Below, piece by piece: positions 1,291-39,800 of a stretch of DNA of 64,000 bases. Numbering within the stretch: position 1 is the stretch's first letter; each line of letters opens with the position of its first letter. The stretch is taken from contig CM119372.1 of the NCBI GenBank assembly GCA_051294905.1, positions 24,058,001 through 24,122,000 on the forward strand, given 5' to 3'. This DNA comes from Botryllus schlosseri. Lineage: Eukaryota. The notes under the pieces are model-generated. The model did not search any database, was not told the origin of the DNA, and worked only from the letters and a program-made list of their open reading frames with translations. Both the position numbers and the translations under genes were made by a program.

Positions 1291-2262
1291 TGGCAGAATT
1301 TTCATTATTAGTATGCTACGTTTTTACGTGCATGTATGACATGCAAAACGTACAAACAGCAGTTGTAATAAACATGTCTGACGCACATGATAACAAATTG
1401 GGGTGCATTATTTTCCTATTATGACTACACAAGCTTCAATAAGGGATGTCTGCAAACTGCTATTGTCTCAGCTGCTCGGCGTAAATGTTCCAGCCGGTAC
1501 AAAGTTTGGTCACAAAGTACCATACATTGCAACCAACCAAGGCCATCTTTATAACCAGTCCGGATCAAATCATACCTGTCATTTTGTTTAGCTTACAACA
1601 TAACAAAGGCACCCCAGCCCCACCGGGACGAAGTTAGCCATCAAATTCTAGCCATCAAAAATAAATATCAGAACTACTGTGTAGAGTACCGCAGGTATCG
1701 GATGTATCACCAGGATCAAGTTTCCGGCCATGCCGCGGGGCAGCCATCGGCCACATACGATGTTTCGACGTAGGTTACGGTGAAATACTCATTAAATTGC
1801 CTTCAAATCAATAAAGCGCATAAATACTCGACTGATTTTATCGCATCACGTCATTTGTGAAACAACTAATAAAGAATATAAGCACGACTAGCACCTCAAC
1901 ACTGTTAACTCAACACAGCTATCTCGCGAATGACTATCTCCATCATGAAATTTTCACAGCTGCAAGGTATCGCTCTGCTGCAAACGAAATTTCGCAAAAT
2001 GTAATTTTAGCACACAAAATCTGGATTGGACAAAACAAATATTGCTCCGACACGCTAAACGCCGTACCTCAAATGTCTCTAAACTATATGATACGCTCAA
2101 CTAAACAGTCACTAAACTTAGAATCGAATCCATCTTCTCCAAACTAGAGACTGTGGCAATGAATGGCGTTCACATATGTATAGTTAGCAGGCAAATCTGA
2201 CACCACACAAATTGTCAACTATCTCCAAGTGGCGCATTCAAATTTATCACGAAAAATATTCG

Positions 2263-4102
2263 ACACCGATTTTCAGCGATATCGAAGTGGCGCAAGGTGT
2301 CCAACGGGCCCGATACGTTCGTCTGCTCAGTGATAAAAATTCAAATTTATTCACGAAAAATATTCGAAAATTTTCAAACTATAACCTGTGTCAAGGAATG
2401 ACTTGCAAATATCTATAGCTTACAGTTACGCCAAGCAGCACACCAATTTTCAGCGATATCCAAGTGGCGCAAGGTGTCCAACGGGCCCGATACGTTCGTC
2501 TGCTCAGTGATAAAAATTCAAATTTATGCACGAAAAATATTCGAAATTTGCCAAACTATACCCTGTGTCAAGGAATGACTTTCAAATATCTATAGCTTAC
2601 AGTTACGCCTAGCAGCACACCGATTTTCAGCGATATCCAAGTGGCGCAAGGTGTCCAACGGACCCGATACGCTCGAATGCACAGTCATAAAAATTCAAAT
2701 TTATTCACGAAAAATATACGAAAATTTTCAAACTATAACCTGTGTCAAGGAATGACTTTCAAATATCTATAGCTTACAGTTACGCCTAGCAGCACACCGA
2801 TTTTCAGCGATATCCAAGTGGCGCAAGGTGTCCAACGGGCCCGATACGTTCGTCTGCTCAGTGATAAAAATTCAAATTTATTCACGAAAAATATTCGAAA
2901 ATTTTCAAACTATAACCTGTGTCAAGGAATGACTTGCAAATATCTATAGCTTACAGTTACGCCAAGCAGCACACCAATTTTCAGCGATATCCAAGTGGCG
3001 CAAGGTGTCCAACGGGCCCGATACGTTCGTCTGCTCAGTGATAAAAATTCAAATTTATGCACGAAAAATATTCGAAATTTGCCAAACTATACCCTGTGTC
3101 AAGGAATGGTTTTCAAATACCTATAGCCTGTAGTTAAACGTAACAGCACACCGATTTTCAGCGATATCCAAGTGGCGCAAGGTGTCTGTCACGGTGGATT
3201 CTCTCAGCATGAGTGGCTCTGTCATGCTCTACTTAATTCTTAACTCGAGAGAAGCGACGACCACGTTTTCGCCCTTTTTAGAGACAGACGTCGTACAGTA
3301 AACAGGGAATTTGTGTCGCATTTCGTGTAGCATTGCATTAACGTAATATCTTCCATTTAGAGTAATTGCCAGCGTATATTTTAACGATACGTTATAGACC
3401 AGTTAGTTAATCCTACTCGCAATACAAGCTACGGAAACCCACTGTGTCTGGACTTTAACGGTCAGTTAGATATCGGTCGTTACTTGCAACAAATATTCCA
3501 GTCCAGTTCTATCGAGAACTGATCCTACGCGACAGTGTCCAACGGGCCCGATACGTTCGTCTGCTCAGTGATAAAAATTCAAATTTATTCACGAAAAATA
3601 TACGAAAATTTTCAAACTATAACCTGTGTCAAGGAATGACTTGCAAATATCTATAGCTTACAGTTACGCCTAGCAGCACACCGATTTTCAGCGATATCCA
3701 AGTGGCGCAAGGTGTCCAACGGACCCGATACGCTCGAATGCACAGTCATAAAAATTCAAATTTATTCACGAAAAATATACGAAAATTTTCAAACTATAAC
3801 CTGTGTCAAGGAATGACTTTCAAATATCTATAGCTTACAGTTACGCCTAGCAGCACACCGATTTTCAGCGATATCCAAGTGGCGCAAGGTGTCCAGCGGA
3901 CCCGATACGCTCGAATGTACAGTCATAAAAATTCAAATTTATTCACGAAAAATATTCGAAAATTTTCAAACTATAACCTGTGTCAAGGAATGACTTTCAA
4001 ATATCTATAGCTTACAGTTACGCCAAGCAGCACACCAATTTTCAGCGATATCCAAGTGGCGCAAGGTGTCCAACGGGCCCGATACGTTCGTCTGCTCAGT
4101 GA
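2263..4102 (+). repeat. 177-bp tandem array, left arm (8 full monomers plus a partial, interrupted by a solo LTR)
   Basis: cagcgatatc recurs at 2274, 2451, 2628, 2805, 2982, 3159, 3689, 3866 and 4043: spacing 177, except 177+353 across the insertion. Confidence 0.97.
3187..3534. mobile_element. Solo LTR (348 bp)
   Basis: Begins TGTCACG, ends CGCGACA (TG...CA with short inverted ends). A 5-bp TSD gtgtc (3182-3186, 3535-3539) splits the monomer motif ggtgtccaacggg. Confidence 0.85.
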
Positions 4103-5319
4103 CATGTTAATCTCAAAGTCACAATGTTGGATGTAATGAACATTTTATCAATCACTTTTCCGTCTTTGCGATGATGGAAGTGTTTGTGATAAATCTGTAG
4201 ACCCAGAATGTTTTACATTAGGGACGTTATATAATACGAAAGAATTCAAGCAATATCCAACCCGCGACATGCAAAACCGGCCACACGCGCTCGCGCAACT
4301 TTTATTTTATCGTACATACAACGGTTAAGTTAGACGGGAAGGTATAACCGGATATAACACATGGTGATCTGTCAGTAATTGGCCTTGTTAGGTTTTGTAA
4401 GATGTCGATATTTCGGATGCAATGGCGATAGCATTTTCCAATACTCAATTTTGACACGGGTAAAACAGATCACTGATTGAGTTGAGTTTCAAATCATTTT
4501 GTGAATTCTTTGACATACTACACCCGAGAAACACTTAAAATTAATGAATATAACATATTACCATGTCTAGGTGAGCTTGAGATAAAATCACCTTGATTCT
4601 GGGGTGGAAAATTAACACAGTGATTGTATATCGTGGTGTAATATTGTCATAAACAGTCAGTTGGGTGTTGAGCGCCGACATCCGCCTTGCGAAACGGTGC
4701 ATCCTCGTATTACATTTGCGATATAACTACCATAGTAAATAATTGGACTCGACAGGATACCCGAGTCATTTGTCCCACAGAATATGAACTCCTTTTACAG
4801 TTAAATAAAAAAGACAGGTCGTTGGAACATAAATATAACCAGGATTTATTTAGGTTGCTGGTTACAGTGATTTATGCTCATGCAACCTTTTTTTTTTAAT
4901 CATATAGGCCTACATACACTGTTTGAGTTTGTCGAGTAAGGTGCGGTGTAAGTGATATTTCAGTAATTGAATCTGTTGGGTTGTAACATGTCGACATGTT
5001 GCGACGCAAAGGTGATACCATATCCAGAAACTCAATTTTGACACAGGAAAAAACCGGATCACTGATCGAGTGGCATGGTTTCAACCCTTGATACTGCTGT
5101 TTGGTGGCCTTGATTAGTGTAAACGATTAGGCTTGTGAAATATTAGCTGATAATCACATCATAAGATTCTGCAACACAGCATCCCGATATATTGCAATAT
5201 ATCACATGGATTCGCTTGAGATAAGATCATCTGGATTTCGGATGTGAAAATTAACACAGTGATTGTATATCCACGCGTAATAATTCTGTCATACAGAGTC
5301 AGTTCGGTGTTGAGCACAA

Positions 5320-5522
5320 TGGTGATTTACACTAGGCCGATATGCTTTATTTTGATTTCGTAGCTGCCGACTTGTAGCACGGGTACTGCTAGGCTTTTTT
5401 AACACACTGCGTACGCCAATCGAGGTGGCGAGGAAGAGCCTAGATAAACATATACAATAAATCGGTAGGAATTCTGGAGTCAACCTCGGTCGGACTCGAA
5501 CTCGCAACTCATTGGAGCCACA
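5320..5522 (-). mobile_element. tRNA-derived SINE fragment (family B)
   Basis: The minus strand reads gcgagttcgagtccgaccgaggttgac (B-box-like). It is homologous to copies at 36345-36580 and 37150-37370. Confidence 0.65.
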
Positions 5523-5629
5523 TAATGTTAACCAAGTCACAAGTCAATCAAAATGTATTAGTTTTAATCAGAGTCATCTTCAATTCACCATGAAGTCAAG
5601 TGCTTGCATGCCTACGTCAAGCAATCACG

Positions 5630-7617
5630 AGCGCCACTTGGATATCGCTGAAAATTGGTGTAGTGTTGGGCGTAACTGTAGTCCAGAGGTCTCAAACTTA
5701 CGTGTGCTCGCGGGCCATTTCCTAGATTTTGATGACGCCGCGGGCCGCAGCATCAATAATAGCGACATTCAAGATTTTTCATAGCGCCTGTCCATTTTCA
5801 ACCCGTTGGACAGCTTGCGCCACTTGGATATCGCTGAAAATCGGTGTGCTGTTACGTTTAACTACAGGCTATAGGTATTTGAAAACCATTCCTTGACACA
5901 GGTTATAGTTTGAAAATTTTCGAATATTTTTCGTGAATAAATTTGAATTTTTATGACTGTGCATTCGAGCGTATCGGGTCCGTTGGACACCTTGCGCCAC
6001 TTGGATATCGCTGAAAATTGGTGTGCTGCTTGGCGTAACTGTAAGCTATAGATATTTGAAAGTCATTCCTTGACACAGGTTATAGTTTGAAAATTTTCGA
6101 ATATTTTTCGTGAATAAATTTGAATTTTTATGACTGTACATTCGAGCGTATCGGGTCCGCTGGACACCTTGCGCCACTTGGATATCGCTGAAAATCGGTG
6201 TGCTGCTAGGCGTAACTGTAAGCTATAGATATTTGAAAGTCATTCCTTGACACAGGTTATAGTTTGAAAATTTTCGTATATTTTTCGTGAATAAATTTGA
6301 ATTTTTATCACTGAGCAGACGAACGTATCGGGCCCGTTGGACACCTTGCGCCACTTGGATATCGCTGAAAATCGGTGTGCTGTTACGTTTAACTACAGGC
6401 TATAGGTATTTGAAAACCATTCCTTGACACAGGGTATAGTTTGGCAAATTTCGAATATTTTTCGTGCATAAATTTGAATTTTTATCACTGAGCAGACGAA
6501 CGTATCGGGCCCGTTGGACACCTTGCGCCACTTGGATATCGCTGAAAATTGGTGTGCTGCTTGGCGTAACTGTAAGCTATAGATATTTGCAAGTCATTCC
6601 TTGACACAGGTTATAGTTTGAAAATTTTCGAATATTTTTCGTGAATAAATTTGAATTTTTATGACTGTGCATTCGAGCGTATCGGGTCCGTTGGACACCT
6701 TGCGCCACTTGGATATCGCTGAAAATCGGTGTGCTGCTAGGCGTAACTGTAAGCTATAGATATTTGAAAGTCATTCCTTGACACAGGTTATAGTTTGAAA
6801 ATTTTCGTATATTTTTCGTGAATAAATTTGAATTTTTATCACTGAGCAGACGAACGTATCGGGCCCGTTGGACACCTTGCGCCACTTGGATATCGCTGAA
6901 AATCGGTGTGCTGTTACGTTTAACTACAGGCTATAGGTATTTGAAAACCATTCCTTGACACAGGGTATAGTTTGGCAAATTTCGAATATTTTTCGTGCAT
7001 AAATTTGAATTTTTATCACTGAGCAGACGAACGTATCGGGCCCGTTGGACACCTTGCGCCACTTGGATATCGCTGAAAATTGGTGTGCTGCTTGGCGTAA
7101 CTGTAAGCTATAGATATTTGCAAGTCATTCCTTGACACAGGTTATAGTTTGAAAATTTTCGAATATTTTTCGTGAATAAATTTGAATTTTTATCACTGAG
7201 CAGACGAACGTATCGGGCCCGTTGGACACCTTGCGCCACTTGGATATCGCTGAAAATCGGTGTGCTGCTAGGCGTAACTGTAAGCTATAGATATTTGAAA
7301 GTCATTCCTTGACACAGGGTATAGTTTGGCAAATTTCGAATATTTTTCGTGCATAAATTTGAATTTTTATCACTGAGCAGACGAACGTATCGGGCCCGTT
7401 GGACACCTTGCGCCACTTGGATATCGCTGAAAATTGGTGTGCTGCTTGGCGTAACTGTAAGCTATAGATATTTGCAAGTCATTCCTTGACACAGGTTATA
7501 GTTTGAAAATTTTCGAATATTTTTCGTGAATAAATTTGAATTTTTATCACTGAGCAGACGAACGTATCGGGCCCGTTGGACACCTTGCGCCACTTCGATA
7601 TCGCTGAAAATCGGTGT
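5630..7617 (-). repeat. 177-bp tandem array, right arm (10 full monomers plus partials)
   Basis: atcgctgaaaa recurs at 5830, 6007, 6184, 6361, 6538, 6715, 6892, 7069, 7246, 7423 and 7600, plus a partial unit at ~5630-5683. It is the reverse complement of the left array. Confidence 0.97.
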
Positions 7618-8476
7618 CGAATATTTTTCGTGATAAATTTGAATGCGCCACTTGGAGATAGTTGACAATTTGTGTGGTGTCAGATTTGCCTGCAAACTAT
7701 ACATATGTGAACGCCATTCATTGCCACAGTCTCTAGTTTGGAGAAGATGGATTCGATTCTAAGTTTAGTGACTGTTTAGTTGAGCGTATCATATAGTTTA
7801 GAGACATTTGAGGTACGGCGTTTAGCGTGTCGGAGCAATATTTGTTTTGTCCAATCCAGATTTTGTGTGCTAAAATTACATTTTGCGAAATTTCGTTTGC
7901 AGCAGAGCGATACCTTGCAGCTGTGAAAATTTCATGATGGAGATAGTCATTCGCGAGATAGCTGTGTTGAGTTAACAGTGTTGAGGTGCTAGTCGTGCTT
8001 ATATTCTTTATTAGTTGTTTCAAAAATGACGTGATGCGATAAAATCAGTCGAGTATTTATGCGCTTTATTGATTTGAAGGCAATTTAATGAGTATTTCAC
8101 CGTAACCTACGTCGAAACATCGTATGTGGCCGATGGCTGCCCCGCGGCATGGCCGGAAACTTGATCCTGGTGATACATCCGATACTTGCGGTACTCTGCA
8201 CAGTAGTTCTGATATTTATTTTTGATGGCTAGAATTTGATGGCTAACTTCGTCCCGGTCCCAGCCCCCACTCCCCATGCGCAGCACCGCACCTGTCGTGT
8301 ATTGACTATTTTTTTTATACTACACCACTATCATTGGCACACATGGGTCGAAGTTGTGAGATAACTTGTTTAGCAAAAGGCGAAGAGGAACTATGCAGTG
8401 CTAACTGGGTCTGTGGCGTCCCACAGGCGAAAAGCCGTAACCGACCACCTCACACCTCAACTGAACCAAACGCATT

Positions 8477-8603: not shown

Positions 8604-11600
8604 ATGCTGAGGAACGTACCATTCCTTGTGATTTTTTACCTATTCCTTATCTGTAGTTGCGAGGCTACGTTATCGAAAAAGAAGAAAACTAAGGATAAGA
8701 AAAAGAAATCAAAGAAGGTGACTCGATATTTATTCATTATATATGAACTAATAACTTTAATCATGAACCGTATATGCCTGTGAAATTATTTATAAGCATG
8801 GATGTAAATAACTAATACAACAGGCAAAAGATTCAGTGCATTAGTCATTACACTCGTCCGCCATAGTCACTGAATGCAAGCAGATCATGTGTGCATCCAT
8901 ATAGCATTCACCGGGAAACTGTGTATTACGATTGCTCTTGCTATAGGCTACTTTTGATCAGGTATAGTGGCAAATTTGAAGATAATTAGGCGTAACGTTG
9001 GCAGTATACTATGTGGCTGCTGAACTACGTCTATTTTGTCTGTATATGTAATTATGTATATCGTTGTGTACAATTAGCGTTATTCATTGCATTACAGGAA
9101 GATGAAGTGAAGGTTAGCCTTCCAGAACAAACCGTCTTCAAACGCGGCTTGGTGAAAGAAAACATCACTTACACTGAAATTACTGATAATTACATGCTGT
9201 ATTCGAAATTCCACAAAAATGAACGGCGATTCGAAGGTGAAGTTCTGGCATATGTAACTCCGGTAAGAAAATATATGTAAAAAGTCTATAATAGCTACGG
9301 TAGGCTAGTAAAGTAGCCTTTGTAGGCTATGTTACTGGAGTAGAGCAATCACAGAGAAAACTGACTGGTGTAAAAAGTATGCCTGTAGACTTATTAGGAG
9401 AACTTCTTAGCACTAATGTAATAGGCTATGTAGATGTTGACTGTTGGGTAGATTAATGATGCAACTCTATTGATGAAGTCATTTCTATTTGACCAAATTT
9501 GCAATGAAGGAACAATGGCATTTTTAATGTGAGCCACGTTAATACAATTACAGTGGCTGTCACATTTACTCATAGAGTGGGTCACTACAGATTTTAGGGC
9601 AAGTTTTTGTTGCAGTCAAATCCGTGGAAAGTTGCATTTATTTTTCACAAAATTCCCACTAGTAAGTTGCATTTATGGACAAGTTCCTTGAAATTATTAG
9701 GGTATGAAATACTCGAATCAATCGCTATCCAAGGCACTGTAGTAAAACTTGGTGTTGGTGACTTCAACAAATTCAATAGCCTGAAAAAATTGACCCAGTG
9801 AAAATATAATTTTCGGCGGTATAGCCTGAATGTACGTCAAATCAGGAAGGACCTCAAATTTAAACGACAGCGAAATAATCAAGCTATCTATTCACGTATA
9901 GTGCCAAATATTTCCAGTAAAAAGTTGGTTGCATGAAAAATCGGGAAAAACTGGAAAAAATTTGCATGAAAAATCAAAAAAAGTTGCAAAAAGTTTCATG
10001 AAAAATCGAAAAAGTTACAAAAAGTTGCATGAAAAAAATGGAGAAAAGTTGCTAAAGGTTGCAATATAAGAATCCTCCAAACAGCTTAAAACACTATGCT
10101 ACATAACTTTTGAGTATTTAGGAAGCTGCAGGAAGCTCTAAAAAAGTTGCAAATGTTGCAAAACTTGCCCTACTGATTATATATAGGCCTCAAAGCTGCT
10201 TGTGTCACCTAGTTCTTGAAGGCAATTATTCCTGCTTTATGACAAAAGTAATCCTATCAAGTTCATGTAATGGTAAGCAAGTGATTCTAGCAATTGAATA
10301 GTATCTTCACATTGAAATGAACCCGAATATTTTCGGCTGACACTCGTCAGGGGTAATCGTCAGCAACTAGTAGAGAATTGGAAAGAACATTGTACGACGT
10401 ACGTTATACAATAGTTATACATTATACAATGTTGTTTCCAATTCTCTACTAATTGCTGACGATTTCCCCTGTCAAGTGTCAGCCGAAAATATGCGGGTTC
10501 ATTACAATATGAATAGACTATTGAATTGTATAGGCAGGGTTGCCATACCGTCCTTATTTTGAAGGGCCACGTCTTAGAAAACTCAAATGTCCTTATTTCT
10601 AAGAAATGTCCTTATTTTCGACTTGCGTCCTTAATTTGTCTTATTTTCAACCACTGCAGAACTTTGATCGTTTTTCTGTGGTATCCGTGTTGCATAATAT
10701 TCTAAAATTATGCTTTTGTGTCGAGATTTCATGACATCATAAATGAAAGGAACTCTTGTGACGTACACACCATAAGATTTGACTACCAAGTGGTGAGATA
10801 GCTAGGGCAGTGGGTGGTATTTTAGCAGTAAACAGCAGTACCAGGTTCCTGCTATTTGATCTACAGCAGAATAAGCTCAAGCTGTGGGGAAGGCAGCATA
10901 TATTGCGTAGTGAAAAAAGACGCAGTGCAGCCGACACATTGGTTAAAAAGTAGTAAAGCTATAAATCATTGATAAATTTTTCAAAATGATATTGCACTTG
11001 CGCACTATCTGCAATTGTGACATTAACCATAGGAAAGACCGCTATTTCAACTCACATTGATACCCCAAAACACAAGAAGTGTGTCATAATGATTAATTTG
11101 AGCCAGTCGATGAATAATGTTTCCACAAGTCGATCAGCGCCAACGAACGACCATCGACTACAAGGCAGCTGCTGCAGAGGGTATGCCTGGACATTCCATA
11201 TTGTCAAATAGGCCTACCAGCAATCATTCCGCACCAACGATTGCACATCGCAATTGCTCAAAGCAATATTCCAACATCGCAAATAAGTTTTCGTCGGTCA
11301 GGACCAAGACTACAGCATTGTTACTGGAGTTCTTGCTCCATATGCTCAAAAAAGATTTTGTCTAAACTTATTGTACGGCATTTTTCCATCTTGATTGACG
11401 CCTCTAATCACAACGAGGTGAAGAAGTTTGGTTAATCAGCCTAGTGGGGAAAGACCAAGGTTTTTTTTGGGAGGGGGGGTGCTGACGAAGTGCTGTATCG
11501 GCCCTGAGTAAAGGTAAATCTAGACCTGAGCTGTCGTGAGATCCATGAAGCACTTTCTACTAACACGGACTTGCTGGAGCAGATTTTTTCTGGCGAAAAG

Positions 11601-33816: not shown

Positions 33817-36800
33817 AGTTTCTATGCGGGCCGAAGAGCTGTTAAGTCATAAGCGCGAAAGGAGTGTGAGAACAGATATTTTAATTATATTTTTGTGTCA
33901 TAATTATACTTTCCATGTAACCTGCACAAATCGATTTCTAACTGACGTTTTCACTTCTGCAAATAACTATTTTATGGCACATTTCCCCATAAAACTTTGA
34001 ACTCGCTGTATACTTTTTTGCCTTATCGTAGCTGGGTGTCAATGGGTATTTAAGCGATTTACGACTGTCCACTGGCATGCGGTCATACGGAATAGAAGTA
34101 ATCATCGAAATGTGACCGTGAATAGCAAAAATTTTGGACAGGACTTCCAGCGTCAGTGAATTTAGTGACCAATACAAATATTTATTTGACAATTCAGCTC
34201 CTCCGACGAAATCCGAGATGGTCTAGGGGTCAGTATTCTTGGCTTTCACCCAATAGGCGGCCCGGGTTGGATTCCCGGTCTGGGAATATCGTTTTACCAT
34301 AAATGCTGCCATTCTTATACCGGGTTTAAGAGTCATTCATATCTAATTTACACATCTTCACTTCGCCACACATTATTCATATTGCACGGTTATGGATTCG
34401 AGAATTCCAACCCCGCGCTGTCGTTGTTCCAGGGGTAAGGATTATTGACTCTCACACAGATCCCGGATTCGAATCCTGGTATGGGGAACGCTAGTTGTGG
34501 GCATCGCGAAACAATACCATGGAAAAAGATTCTTTTCGAGCAATCAAGGGTAATACATATCCAAATTTCATCCTGGGAGTCGCGACCTGCGAGGGGGTCG
34601 TTTGTCCTTTTTTGCGAGAATCAAAAGTGGTGACCTTTGTATTTTTGACTGTCATAAATGAGCTTCCCAAACATAGCCTCATCGAATTTAGGGGTGGGCC
34701 GTGAAACATTTTCAATACCAAAATTTCGTTGCGACCATAAAAAAGGTTGGGAGCCATCATAGTTTAGCGGTTAATCGGAAGTTGGAGAGTGAATCTTTCG
34801 CAGCCTTTACTCATAGAAATGATGCAAACGTAACCCAATACTACTTCCAAAAATCCGAAGTCTTCAAAGTAGGCCTAAGCTTTTTGCCTTCATAATAACT
34901 TGTTAAGTAGGCCTAGTGGTGGAAGCAGTCTAAATCATACCCACTCGAGTAAGCAAGTATAGACAAAATATGCTTGAGTACTGCGAAAAAATGGAAACAC
35001 TTCGCTACTGACCACGTTTCGTTGAAATATCGTGAACGTATTTAAAAAGTGGAAGCATAGATATCACTAGCAACCGCCAAATTTACAATGATTAACAGCC
35101 GCGATTCGACTTCCAACTTTTAGAAAGCTGCTAAAGCCAAGATAGTTTGACGATTTTATTCGTGGATATTCACCATTCCGTCGTCGCAAGCGTCTCCAGT
35201 TTCGTCGTCATCATTGTCCTGTTGAAGTGGATTTTGAATTTTTGGGCAATTGTCGCAAGCGTCTCCCACACTATCTCCATCACCGTCGTACTGGACTGCG
35301 TTCGGATGCGCCGGGCAATTATCTCGTAGGTTGCCGATGCCTGAACAATGTGAACATAGATCGAACTTTCTGTCTCAGTTTTAATAATAATTTTATCAGA
35401 ATAATGCGCCACAAGATTGTGCTACTATGCAAAGATAGCAAGGTATCGAAACGACTTGGAGTAGTCTTTTCTTTACATCGTCTAGGCAACGGTGCCTGTC
35501 AGATTTCAAAGACTACTCCAATGTATACTTAGGGTTGCATTTAAAGCAAACGGTGTTTTAAAACACTTCGTTCAAAACATGTTTTAAACGGTGTTTAAAA
35601 AAAAGACCTTTTTAAAAAAAAACTAAATTGTGTTTTTTTCAAGTGATAAAATTATGCCATAATTGTGTAAATACTTTACAAAAACATGTTGTGTGAGACT
35701 ACGGACAATTATCACCCGATATAGCCGACGTTCATCGATATGGGATGGTTGGAACCCTCAAAATAGTTGGTTCAAAAGCAATAGTACATATATTTCGTCA
35801 AAGGAGTTATTTATACCCTATATTTTCAATTGTCAATGTCAATCCACTATGACGTTACAATTGAATATTCGTGACGTCATGGCTTAAAAAAAACATAAAA
35901 TACAATAAAACACATGTGTAATATTAGGGCTTTGTTTAAAACATGTTTGTTTTAAATTGATTTTTTTTAATGCAACCCTAACTGCATGAAAAGTAATACA
36001 AGATAACATATAGAACAGAGGTCTCAAACACGCGGCCCGCGACCGTATTTTGGATTCGAAGTATTCGACAATATTTAAGTGTCATACATCTTTTTTTATT
36101 TGAAAACTGGAAATTGGCCCCAAAACTACCCCAGAAGCTTGAAACTACTCATCAAACTTCACTATTTCATCACTTTCAAAAGTTACCACTGAGGGCAGGA
36201 TCACTGAATACTTCGGCGATTGAACATTTCTATTGCTATGACACAGTACGGTAATCATTATATTCAAGTTGTTTTAGATCTGTTCCAATATTCGAAGGTA
36301 AATCAAACGCTGATTTAATTTGGCATAGGTAATGAGACATAATCAATAGCTGCAACACCAATGGGAGCGGGTTCGAGTCCGACCGAGGTCGACTTTCAAG
36401 TGTTAGAGGTTTACCTATAGGCCCCTCCTCGCCGCCTCATCCGCGTCAGCGGTGTCTTACAAAAGCCTAAAGGTGGGCCGTGCTAGAAGTCGGCAGTTTC
36501 GGAAAATAAGAAGAATATCGGCCTGGTGTAAATGACCATAGTAGTCAACAAACACCATGGATACCCCAACACAAACAAACAAGCAATAGCCTTGTTATCA
36601 GGAGTATGCCTGAAACTCGGAATAGGTTGTACTGCTCCAATGCTCTGATAGCAGCAGATCAATCTTTGTAAAATTCTAAAATATTCTACCTATAACGTCA
36701 AATTTCCGTTAGCTGCAAAATTATAACGCAACAGCTTTTACGGTGTCCTGATGCATTTTTACTCTCGCATGGTGTCTACAGCAGCTATGCTAAGTACAGC

Positions 36801-39800
36801 AACAATTTTATTCAAATATTTTAAAATGTGATTTTTTCGTGCCGAGCGTGAATTCACAATAGTAAATCACATTTTAAAGATGCGTGTGGTATGTCAGTTT
36901 GCAAGGTCCCGTCAAATAAAGTCTACTCGAAAATACATTGAATTCCTCCATTATTGTTGCTGAGGCGCGCAGCGCCATGATCAAGTAGCAAATTGACCCG
37001 CGAGTACATTTGAGTTTGAGACCTCTGATATAGAAGGACAAGCGACATAAATGTGGTGGCATGTGACGGAAGGCGAAGTCGATATATCAGATCGTGGTCG
37101 AGTGATCTCGAGCGCTGACTATTTAACTGTGTTGTTGTTTTGATATTCATGGTGTTTCGACTACATTGGTCATTTTACACCTGACAGATATTCTTTATTA
37201 TTATTCCGTATTTACCGACTTGTTGCACGGCCCACTTTTAGGCTTTTTAAGACACCGTTTACCCTTACAAGGATGAGATGGCGATCAGATGTAGAAATTC
37301 TGGAGTCGACCTCGGTCGGACTCGAACCCGCAACCAATTGGTGTCGCAGCTGTGGATCATACCACTACGCTTTCTCATCAGACTAGTCATCAGACTGTGT
37401 TCGGTTCGGTACCGACGAATGAAAGCTAATTACCATAGATTCAAATCGGAATATACATTTCGAATCTACTACAGTCATTGCTTAAATTAACCATCTGTTA
37501 CGGGCGAGCAGAGGAGATCAAAGTAGTCACCGTTTCAACTCAAGTACAAGTCGAAGTAATACCGTAAATTTGCAATCAAGTAGAAGTGGCGATTTCCAAG
37601 ATACGTCAAAACTACTTCAAGTATTAAAATAGAAAGGGATAGGTCTCAACCGTACTAATGTAAGTAATTTTTAAAAGTAGATTTGGTCGAGTGGTCGGAT
37701 AAGTTTAGTAGTCGATCGAAGGCGACAGTTTTTCAAATCGAAAGATTCTGCATCGCGGATAACATACGGCGACGTATATAAAAATGTAAATATATTAGGG
37801 TTACCATACGTACCGTTTTAAGAGGATTTGTCCTCTTTTTTTAAAGTGTCCTCAGAGGACGCCCGAATGTCCTCTTTTTTGAGATTTTGTCCTCTTGTTT
37901 GAGGATTTTGTTTAAAGATAGGGTAAAATTCGAGTGAGATACAGTAAATCAGCAGCGCAGTAACGCTCCGGCGACTATTTCGGGAGCTGAGCCGGAAAGT
38001 TGACCATTTTATTTAGTCAACCAAGCACAAAGTCGGGGAAAATTTACCATTTTTTCCGGATTTTACTCCAGAAATGTTTGAAAATTTTCGAAAAAGTGCC
38101 CTCTTTTCACGTGTCCAAAATATGGTAATCCTAGAATATATAGCTGCACTTGTCGAATATAATACCAAATGTAAAAAACTAAGTAGTTTTTTTTTCTACA
38201 GAAATCGTTAAGTAAGTATAGAAGTAGCCTAAAAATAAAACAACTCGCTCAAGTGTAGTGCAAAGTATAGGCAAAGCCTGCTTGAGTATAGCAGTCGGAA
38301 AAGTTAAAGTAATTCATTACCCTTGGTTATGTTTTAAAAGTTTGACATGATTGGATACAGAGGACCAGATTCAAGTCGAATCGGATAATTCAAGACCATT
38401 GTCGCGTTGAATCGGCGATTCAAATTCTGACATCCCTATATGTTCTTCCGTAAAAACACGAACATTAGCATACCGTCTCCGTCCATATCTTCATCGCAAG
38501 TGTCACCGACTCCGTCGAAATCCAAGTCTCGCTGATCCGGGTTCGATATTTCGCGGCAGTTGTCGCACGCGTCGCCGTGCCCATCCGAATCTGAATTGCT
38601 CTGGTGCACGTTCACGTGGAGGGGGCAGTTGTCCTGTAATGTATTCGCATTGAAATTATGAAATTGGAAATGCTCACATCCGCATATTTCCTAGACCATC
38701 ATGCTATCCTTTCAGTATAGGTATGGCGGTTTTCAGAAGCAACGTAACATGAATTTTTCTACTGCTTAACCTACTCAATGATTTCTCTAGTGCACTCTTC
38801 GCGAAAAGAGTTTGTGTTCACACCCACAGTGCCGAAAAGGGTGGTACACGAAAACAGAACCTAACTCAGAATTATACGCATAATTTGGATTAAAATGTTG
38901 TACTCAATTTATACCGCGGTATAAGTCTGGGGCAGGTTCTGGCTTCGTGCGCCATGGGTGTACATTCACACCCGTATTTCAGGGTGGTACGCAGGTGGAA
39001 ATACACACCCTTCTCGCCAAGAGTGCACGTCTTTCTTCCCTTCAACGGTTTTGAGGATCATGTGGTTGGGCTCACTTCTACATTTCCCTGCTGCGTTTTG
39101 TCAACGAGAAAGTGGTCTTCGAATGGATAATCATGAAGACTATCTAGGTAAGGGGCGTAGCTACCATAACATCGGGGCGTATAATAGACTTTGTGTAACC
39201 GGCACAGAACGGCTTGGAAATTGCACCTGTTAGTGTCGCCATTTTTAATTATGAGTTAATCGCGGGCATGCACGCACAGTGCGATTGAAAAATTCATCGG
39301 AGTGAATGATGGTCGATATTTACTACTCTGCGACGCGCCTGCTTTTCAATCAATCTACCTTACAATATTTTCGATACTTCGTTTTATACCTAATCCTAAA
39401 TAGGTTTTGCTAATGCTAGACAAATAACGTCCTGGACCCTTCCCGTTACATCAACTGCTAATAAGATACCTTCTTCGTGTATCGAAGCGCGACTTCAACG
39501 TCGTGGTTTTATGGCTAAACACTGCTCCTAGAGCGAGTGAACAAAACCGTGGCAACAGTGGCAAGGCGTAAATTATACGTCGTCATATCGATTTGATCGG
39601 CAAGTTGAGGACTTCATACCCAAGCACTATATCATGAACAGCGATTTTCGAATGATTTTTATTTTATTTTTTTGTAACCGGGAACCGGGAAGCCCGGGTT
39701 CGATTCCGCGACGGAGGATATTCTGGGCTCCTCTTCCCCCGCGTCGCTGTTCTTACGGCGACAAAAAAGTCCAGAAAAAAGATCCGATGAAAGAGCGCAC

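Follow-up and report, generated by a model that had tools for sequence, protein, structure and literature searches.

A likely non-autonomous foldback element with mosaic 177-bp arrays and a doubled three-unit block in Botryllus schlosseri

The question raised by positions 2263 to 7617 of a 64,000-nt stretch of Botryllus schlosseri DNA (assembly GCA_051294905.1, contig CM119372.1, positions 24,058,001 to 24,122,000 of the forward strand; the whole stretch is referred to as the window) is whether the 177-bp units tandemly arranged there document the birth of a satellite and of its higher-order repeat inside a transposon by slippage and conversion between two inverted arms, as a first-pass annotation of the bare sequence had suggested. 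The units make up the inner parts of the arms of an inverted-repeat element of 6,637 bp (1622-8258). At a probability of about 0.8, we consider this element likely to be a non-autonomous foldback DNA transposon of the Mutator/Rehavkus-like kind, moved by a helper transposase, with the three-unit rhythm of its right arm likely stemming from one duplication of 531 bp.

Anatomy of the element and its unit arrays

The arms of the element are complementary at 97% (1622-3186 versus 6694-8258), and the same nine bases flank both its ends, constituting target-site duplications (TSDs) at 1613-1621 and 8259-8267 (both plus strand). When flanks of 4 to 13 bases were compared, identity was obtained at nine bases alone, ruling out the 8-bp TSD of hAT-type elements as well as any other length. 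This agrees with the TSDs of 8-10 bp known from foldback elements of the Tetris type, and so does the modular build of the long terminal inverted repeats (TIRs), in which an outer domain is followed inward by a tandem array. The outer inverted repeats have a length of 641 bp and differ at four positions (left, 1622-2262, plus strand, with many copies in other sequencing runs; right, 7618-8258, minus strand). The left array (2263-4102, plus strand) comprises eight full units and a further 71 bp before stopping abruptly at its inner side, while the right array (5802-7617, minus strand) consists of ten full units plus 46 bp and is followed by a degenerate inner edge (5631-5801, minus strand) broken by 90 bp derived from another dispersed repeat (5683-5772). 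Within the outer repeat, a degenerate, older unit of the 177-bp type is preserved (2090-2236, plus strand, with the mirror copy at 7644-7790; nhmmer E values of 1.4e-8 and 1.8e-9), the local alignment score of which (101 versus a shuffle mean of 25.6) was reached by none of 300 shuffles. Additional degenerate units in 1622-2060 were considered and rejected, the respective scores being at shuffle level (reached by 121 and 42 of 300 shuffles).

The middle of the element (4103-5630) is non-coding, with a longest stop-free frame of 107 aa. Out of 35 frames with a length of 40 aa or more, 20 were scanned against Pfam (16 of 22 from the middle and 4 of 13 from the outer arm; the other 15 mostly overlap the arrays or each other), and none reached the curated cut-off, while two host-gene frames serving as controls were recognized. 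A coding role of the element was rejected on these grounds. In particular, this copy yielded no DDE transposase (with PHD finger) in the Pfam scan, and a middle devoid of coding capacity is what non-autonomous copies of foldback elements possess. Neither a structured RNA (no Rfam match up to E 0.1) nor a tRNA was found in the element.

Aligning all units had been recommended by the first-pass annotation, and the resulting variant map (18 full units from both arms, period 177) contains 28 variable columns, every one biallelic and grouped in blocks, and resolves 10 distinct unit sequences. All four allele combinations occur in 136 of the 378 column pairs, which thus fail the four-gamete test, so that the units are mosaics of recombined blocks, just as the annotation had described them on the basis of three pairs of diagnostic blocks, all of which are present. 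Likewise borne out are the identity of the two outermost units between the arms (an exact run of 399 bp) and the differing order and number of full units (8 versus 10), to which a 348-bp insertion splitting left unit 6, not mentioned previously, has to be added.

Two short motifs deserve mention with regard to mobilization. By eye, the 11-base motif TAGCCATCAAA was noticed twice just inside the element tip (1635-1659) and is, judged from sequence alone, a candidate primary transposase site. The box CCAAGTGGCGC is kept in both degenerate edges, and all of its 23 matches in the window lie inside the element, offering a weak lead for a putative transposase binding site. The 177-bp units are probably either extra transposase-binding sites or neutral passengers. 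Exact-pattern scans did not retrieve any match to the unit motif in metagenome, viral and prokaryote contigs or to the end motif in metagenome contigs.

The 531-bp period of the right arm

In the right arm, the block gcctgtagttaaacgt (minus strand) occurs at 5854, 6385 and 6916 and hence at a spacing of exactly 531 bp, establishing the recurrence at every third unit that had been annotated at coordinates five bases off, while the left arm holds a single occurrence (3126). Accordingly, the mismatch between right-arm units drops to 3.66% (47/1285) at lag 3 compared to 7.0-7.9% at lags 1, 2, 4 and 5, a signal significant by permutation of the unit order (p = 0.009; p = 0.027 with the choice among lags 2-4 taken into account). 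A three-unit period is not found in the left arm (lag 3, p = 0.47). The two matching trimer copies are right-arm units 4-6 and 7-9 (6556-7086 and 6025-6555, together 6025-7086, minus strand), which are identical at 528 of 531 positions, the longest exact run at the 531-bp offset extending over 502 bp (6692-7193 = 6161-6662). The third unit bearing gcctgtagttaaacgt differs from its counterpart in 11 of the 28 columns, and 12 of 223 bases deviate in what would be a third trimer copy.

A single event is sufficient for generating such a pattern. When parsing the right array in register, its first 1,599 of 1,816 bases can be taken from the left arm with only one mismatch and three jumps, at which one unit is missing, three units are doubled and again one unit is missing; two further jumps are needed at the inner end. 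In simulations, one three-unit duplication resulted in p ≤ 0.027 in 23 of 120 arrays, compared to 2 of 120 without any duplication, 5 of 120 with a two-unit and 82 of 120 with a four-unit duplication. One three-unit duplication is therefore an adequate cause of the right-arm period.

Higher-order satellite repeats, such as primate alpha satellite, are characterized by multi-unit blocks that are more alike between copies than the units are to their neighbors, and this holds for the two trimer copies (528/531). Amplification of the block to many copies, however, is not seen, as there are just two of them and the left arm lacks the period. Consequently, the 531-bp repeat is a higher-order repeat in the minimal, two-copy sense only. 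Of the nascent higher-order repeat proposed by the annotation, the period itself is real (p 0.009-0.027), but with only two matching trimer copies it likely stems from a single duplication.

Exchange between the arms and age of the variants

At the rate of change observed in the outer repeats (4 differences in 641 bp), 8-10 arm-specific alleles would be expected in the arrays. None of the 28 array alleles, in contrast, is specific to one arm (p 0.007-0.014). Moreover, the rare alleles at columns 22, 42 and 64 each occur once in either arm, and the order is common to both arms over exact runs of 399, 551, 426 and 329 bp. Comparison with other copies of the family was based on the contigs of four public runs (X1, X16, X15 and X5, with X15 being of unknown library type) over positions 600-2439, using 40 of 157 variant rows, while marine and seawater metagenome runs with small shares did not enter the comparison. 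At five or more sites of the outer repeat (at least 1686, 1819, 1884, 2004 and 2028), the two arms agree in a letter that is mostly replaced by another one in the other runs (39-72% in X1, 42-100% in X16, 86-100% in X5 and 97-100% in X15); at site 2186, it is only the left arm that deviates from the family letter. These results lend modest support to recent copying, either from arm to arm or out of a very close sister copy, although only four events are counted and assembly polishing could produce the same picture.

The latter leads to the question of whether assembly or polishing itself produced the duplication of 531 bp or left the arrays without private mutations. Near-identical repeats are prone to misassembly, the evidence comes from contigs only and not from long reads spanning an arm, and 3,186 array bases devoid of private alleles would fit polishing with multi-mapped reads. 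On the other hand, the trimer copies differ at three sites, and two of the alleles concerned recur in the left arm, which is unlike a simple duplication artefact. In addition, the outer repeats have retained their four differences, and the 348-bp insertion is present in one arm only. Hence, we regard an artefact as quite improbable.

A donor outside the element is a further alternative. The mosaic structure and the similarity of the two arms could be due to exchange with other copies of the family or to repair after excision instead of direct conversion from arm to arm. In favor of this, the block alleles are family-wide, ectopic exchange among copies has been proposed for Galileo (PMC3573991; here and below, literature is cited from excerpts of the respective papers), and a family variant was detected that joins the degenerate unit to unit 1 in register, from 2111 to 2339, with five letters in between and 227 bases skipped. 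This junction reaches a depth of 933 in X16 (about one fifth of the outer-arm depth) and is also present in X5, implying that in-register exchange occurs across the family. Nevertheless, the order shared over the four long exact runs, the rare alleles at columns 22, 42 and 64 common to both arms, and the at least five outer-repeat letters shared against the more common family form would demand a very close sister as donor, so that we consider this explanation rather unlikely; it would change the donor and not the identity of the element. Concerning slippage and conversion between the arms as proposed in the annotation, in-register gains and losses do explain the order of units, and conversion, be it between arms or with sister copies, is modestly supported by the absence of arm-specific alleles.

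In contrast, the notion that the variants were born in this transposon was not sustained. The marker allele of the gctcgaatgcacagtcat block at 2308 is carried by 6 of the 18 units and accounts for a similar share of the depth in three independent runs (25% in X1, 35% in X16 and 29% in X5, among the rows listed). Furthermore, of 19 block sites in the degenerate outer unit, 11 show the minor allele, seven the major allele and one another letter. As this unit carries both allele forms, both forms of the blocks are likely old lineages. It is thus likely that the variants did not originate in this copy and that the blocks are about as old as the degenerate outer unit.

The element belongs to a dispersed family of many copies, the depth of the outer arm being 13- to 307-fold that of the single-copy flank (1468-1591; depths of 10.6, 106, 8.9 and 2.8) in all four runs. 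Also in all four runs, the match of the flank contigs stops at 1621 (1618 in X16) and continues with 28-203 other letters. Since the contigs leave at the very border of the element, the insertion seems to be absent from other haplotypes, suggesting an empty site in the other samples, and both the dispersal and the missing insertion are in agreement with a foldback transposon. Run X5 is labelled as a different organism (B) and contains the single-copy flank with one difference in 186 bases as well as the element family; possibly, this is a sister label or a mixed sample.

The 348-bp insertion in left unit 6 (3187-3534, no strand assigned; beginning with TG and ending with CA) is bordered by a 5-bp target duplication (3182-3186 and 3535-3539) and is absent from the right arm. 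Judged by usual LTR features, it is likely a solo LTR (long terminal repeat), and its presence in one arm only makes it a time marker for the last exchange between the arms at this unit.

Satellite question, genomic setting and related systems

Expansion of units out of foldback arms is documented, with TCsat12 reaching up to 80.5 kb (PMC12581902), and a corresponding escape of the 177-bp unit into long free arrays, possibly centromeric, would make the element the seed of a satellite and of its three-unit higher-order repeat. In line with this, the bin-wise monomer depth attains 290- to 5,338-fold that of the flank in three of the four runs, and X1 and X16 have contigs that run back from the end of a unit to a unit start. 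Depth summed over contigs, however, does not represent copy number, and a satellite less than 85% alike would escape detection. From arm-bound arrays like those of this element, a monomer-to-arm depth of 9-10 is expected. The medians at single positions amount to 13.7 (X1), 10.1 (X16), 0.7 (X15) and 6.2 (X5) and thus fit arm-bound arrays, while the bins yield 17, 23, 1.0 and 14, respectively. Consequently, arm-bound arrays can account for most monomers, with an excess of up to about 2.5-fold being possible. For a megabase satellite, in contrast, one would expect ratios reaching the hundreds. Moreover, there are two trimer copies only, the left arm is without the period, and the insertion site is gene-rich. 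For these reasons, long free arrays seeded from this element appear improbable, and the birth of a satellite as annotated is not supported, as contig depth, crude as this measure is, shows no large pool of free monomers. That the unit left Mutator-like foldback arms for seeding an abundant satellite, with the doubled trimer as higher-order unit of long, possibly centromeric arrays, we judge highly improbable.

Little is left of a centromeric hint. The several A/T runs noted in the monomer are present (4-5 runs of at least four bases per unit), yet these counts were reached by 90-446 of 1000 dinucleotide shuffles, and A/T runs were rejected as a centromere sign for being at chance level. The units have an A+T content of 59-61% compared to 59% for the window, and do not fold better than shuffles (z 0.96). 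A 10-11-bp A/T dinucleotide signal, which would suit a free satellite, is borderline, with 17, 50 and 62 of 1000 shuffles reaching it in the three units analyzed, which are near-identical. Hence, the hint comes down to the unit length, and satellite units commonly have 140-180 bp in Tribolium, transposon-borne ones included (PMC12581902).

Several points weigh against a foldback transposon moved in trans whose right arm underwent a single duplication. Of the 120 single-duplication simulations, 97 gave a weaker signal than the observed p of 0.027, and together with the third block being in phase, this signal indicates that an older round of three-unit duplication may be needed and may have contributed. 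The bin ratios of 14-23 in three of the four runs, albeit not exceeding the expectation by more than about 2.5-fold, leave room for longer arrays, and X15 gives a bin ratio of only 1.0. Marker 2405 is carried by 12 of the 18 units compared to 84% in X1 and 99% in X16 (among the rows listed), so that family frequencies do not simply mirror this copy. Finally, no helper transposase could be tied to the element ends by pattern scans, and the terminal motif TAGCCATCAAA is absent from the 177-bp unit, weakening the idea of units serving as binding sites.

The window contains spliced genes, among them thrombospondin-like and tetraspanin-like exons (Pfam scan) and a CHID1-like gene, the exon of which at 14263-14568 matches CHID1 of PDB entry 3bxw (E 3.5e-19). 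A thrombospondin exon had a best full-length identity of 59%, with Ciona at 53% and Clavelina at 52%. The predicted first coding exon of the latter gene (8604-8717, plus strand; frame assigned by eye, start codon predicted) lies outside the element, whose right end is located 345 bases before the predicted start codon. Given this position and its seeming absence from other samples, the element may be a polymorphic promoter insertion at the CHID1-like gene. Other repeats include an older, large inverted repeat (55498-56901/58883-60495) with arms of about 1.4-1.6 kb that are 80-86% alike, possibly a second foldback-type element, and a 534-bp inverted repeat (20894-21424/22818-23351; 96% alike, about 1.4 kb apart) within the region of the thrombospondin-like gene. 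The middle of the element harbors a pair of diverged direct repeats (4364-4673 and 4952-5315), about 590-640 bases apart, as well as a dispersed repeat (5308-5515) with copies also at 36358-36550 and 37151-37341. For the latter, a tRNA-promoter-like box seen by eye suggests a short interspersed element (SINE); matches with Rfam or ARAGORN were not obtained.

Taken together, the following history could be envisaged. Part of the arm would have been duplicated in tandem to yield the unit, with the outer edge still preserving a degenerate unit and the inner edge a remnant. Tracts of old, diverged unit lineages may then have been pasted into the common unit, giving rise to the biallelic blocks found family-wide, and copying from the opposite arm or from a sister copy would have followed, with the arrays affected at a later time than the outer repeat. 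The right arm would have developed as a left arm minus one unit, with three units doubled, another one missing and a different inner end, for which in-register unequal exchange or slippage would suffice. The element, having lost its transposase gene or never having possessed one, would have inserted recently just upstream of the CHID1-like gene and subsequently acquired the solo LTR in one arm.

The element is a readable example of how the order of units changes in short transposon-borne arrays, as each arm controls for the other: three in-register jumps cover most of the difference between the arms, and the arrays are without any arm-specific allele. Given that the genome carries tens to a few hundred arms, this family could allow both the step size of duplications and the conversion between inverted arms to be estimated directly. 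If the unit were the major satellite of this genome, a higher-order repeat would be tied to its transposon source, which the present data do not show; dozens of dated, gene-flanked copies would then record the birth of a higher-order repeat event by event.

Compared to known systems, the doubled trimer resembles the dimeric and trimeric higher-order repeats of Tribolium (PMC10218199, PMC12581902) in that a multi-unit block is repeated at 99.4% identity while neighboring units are about 92% alike. It differs in having two copies, with the third one failing, mosaic subunits that are 86-100% alike and no array-scale amplification, whereas Tribolium subunits differ by 18-37% (PMC10218199, PMC12581902). 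In listings of mostly open literature, there is no direct report of a higher-order repeat or doubled trimer in foldback arms, though supplements of the Tribolium work (Figs S14, S16) may show one, nor of ascidian or tunicate satellites and foldbacks. TIRs and internal arrays are both viewed as satellite sources (review, PMC12628747), and of the Tribolium foldback units, some stay in the termini while others expanded to 80.5 kb (PMC12581902).

Galileo F of Drosophila mojavensis likewise has tandem repeats of about 210 bp inside long TIRs, unequal in number between the arms, and recombination and conversion have been proposed for the long TIRs of Galileo (PMC3573991). Its TSD of 7 bp and 0-3 units (PMC3573991) are different, however, and Galileo is a member of the P superfamily (PMC4079207). 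The 9-bp TSD found here points to a Mutator-like element instead. In Muta1, subterminal repeats are combined with TSDs of 8-9 bp (PMC5225508). The same anatomy is seen in Tetris of Drosophila virilis, with an outer flanking domain, an inner array of units of about 220 bp, a non-coding middle, a TSD of 8-10 bp and a unit resembling part of the outer domain (PMC4079207); its allelic changes in unit number have been ascribed to unequal crossing over (PMC4079207). Tetris units were also located by FISH in arrays of up to 66 copies (PMC4079207), while none such is shown here, and the present arrays are longer per arm (8 and 10 units), mosaic and contain a doubled trimer.

The combination of a 9-bp TSD with tandem arrays in inverted termini is that of Rehavkus and related Mutator-like elements (PMC6446971 Table 1, PMC10218199). 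Rehavkus termini also consist of a TIR plus short tandem arrays with unequal numbers of units per end, Rehavkus-1_TC of Tribolium having 164-bp units, mostly 5 and 8 per end (PMC10218199), and Rehavkus-3_TC 6-8 or up to 50 units (PMC10218199, PMC12581902). The likeness is one of anatomy. The outer repeat extends over 641 bp compared to 26-400 bp in Rehavkus, and a transposase or PHD finger was not found in this copy; the Rehavkus passages considered do not include a unit-by-unit variant map or a doubled trimer. In its structure, the element from B. schlosseri is thus a foldback element, a kind already known, and works like those of the Tetris/Rehavkus type.

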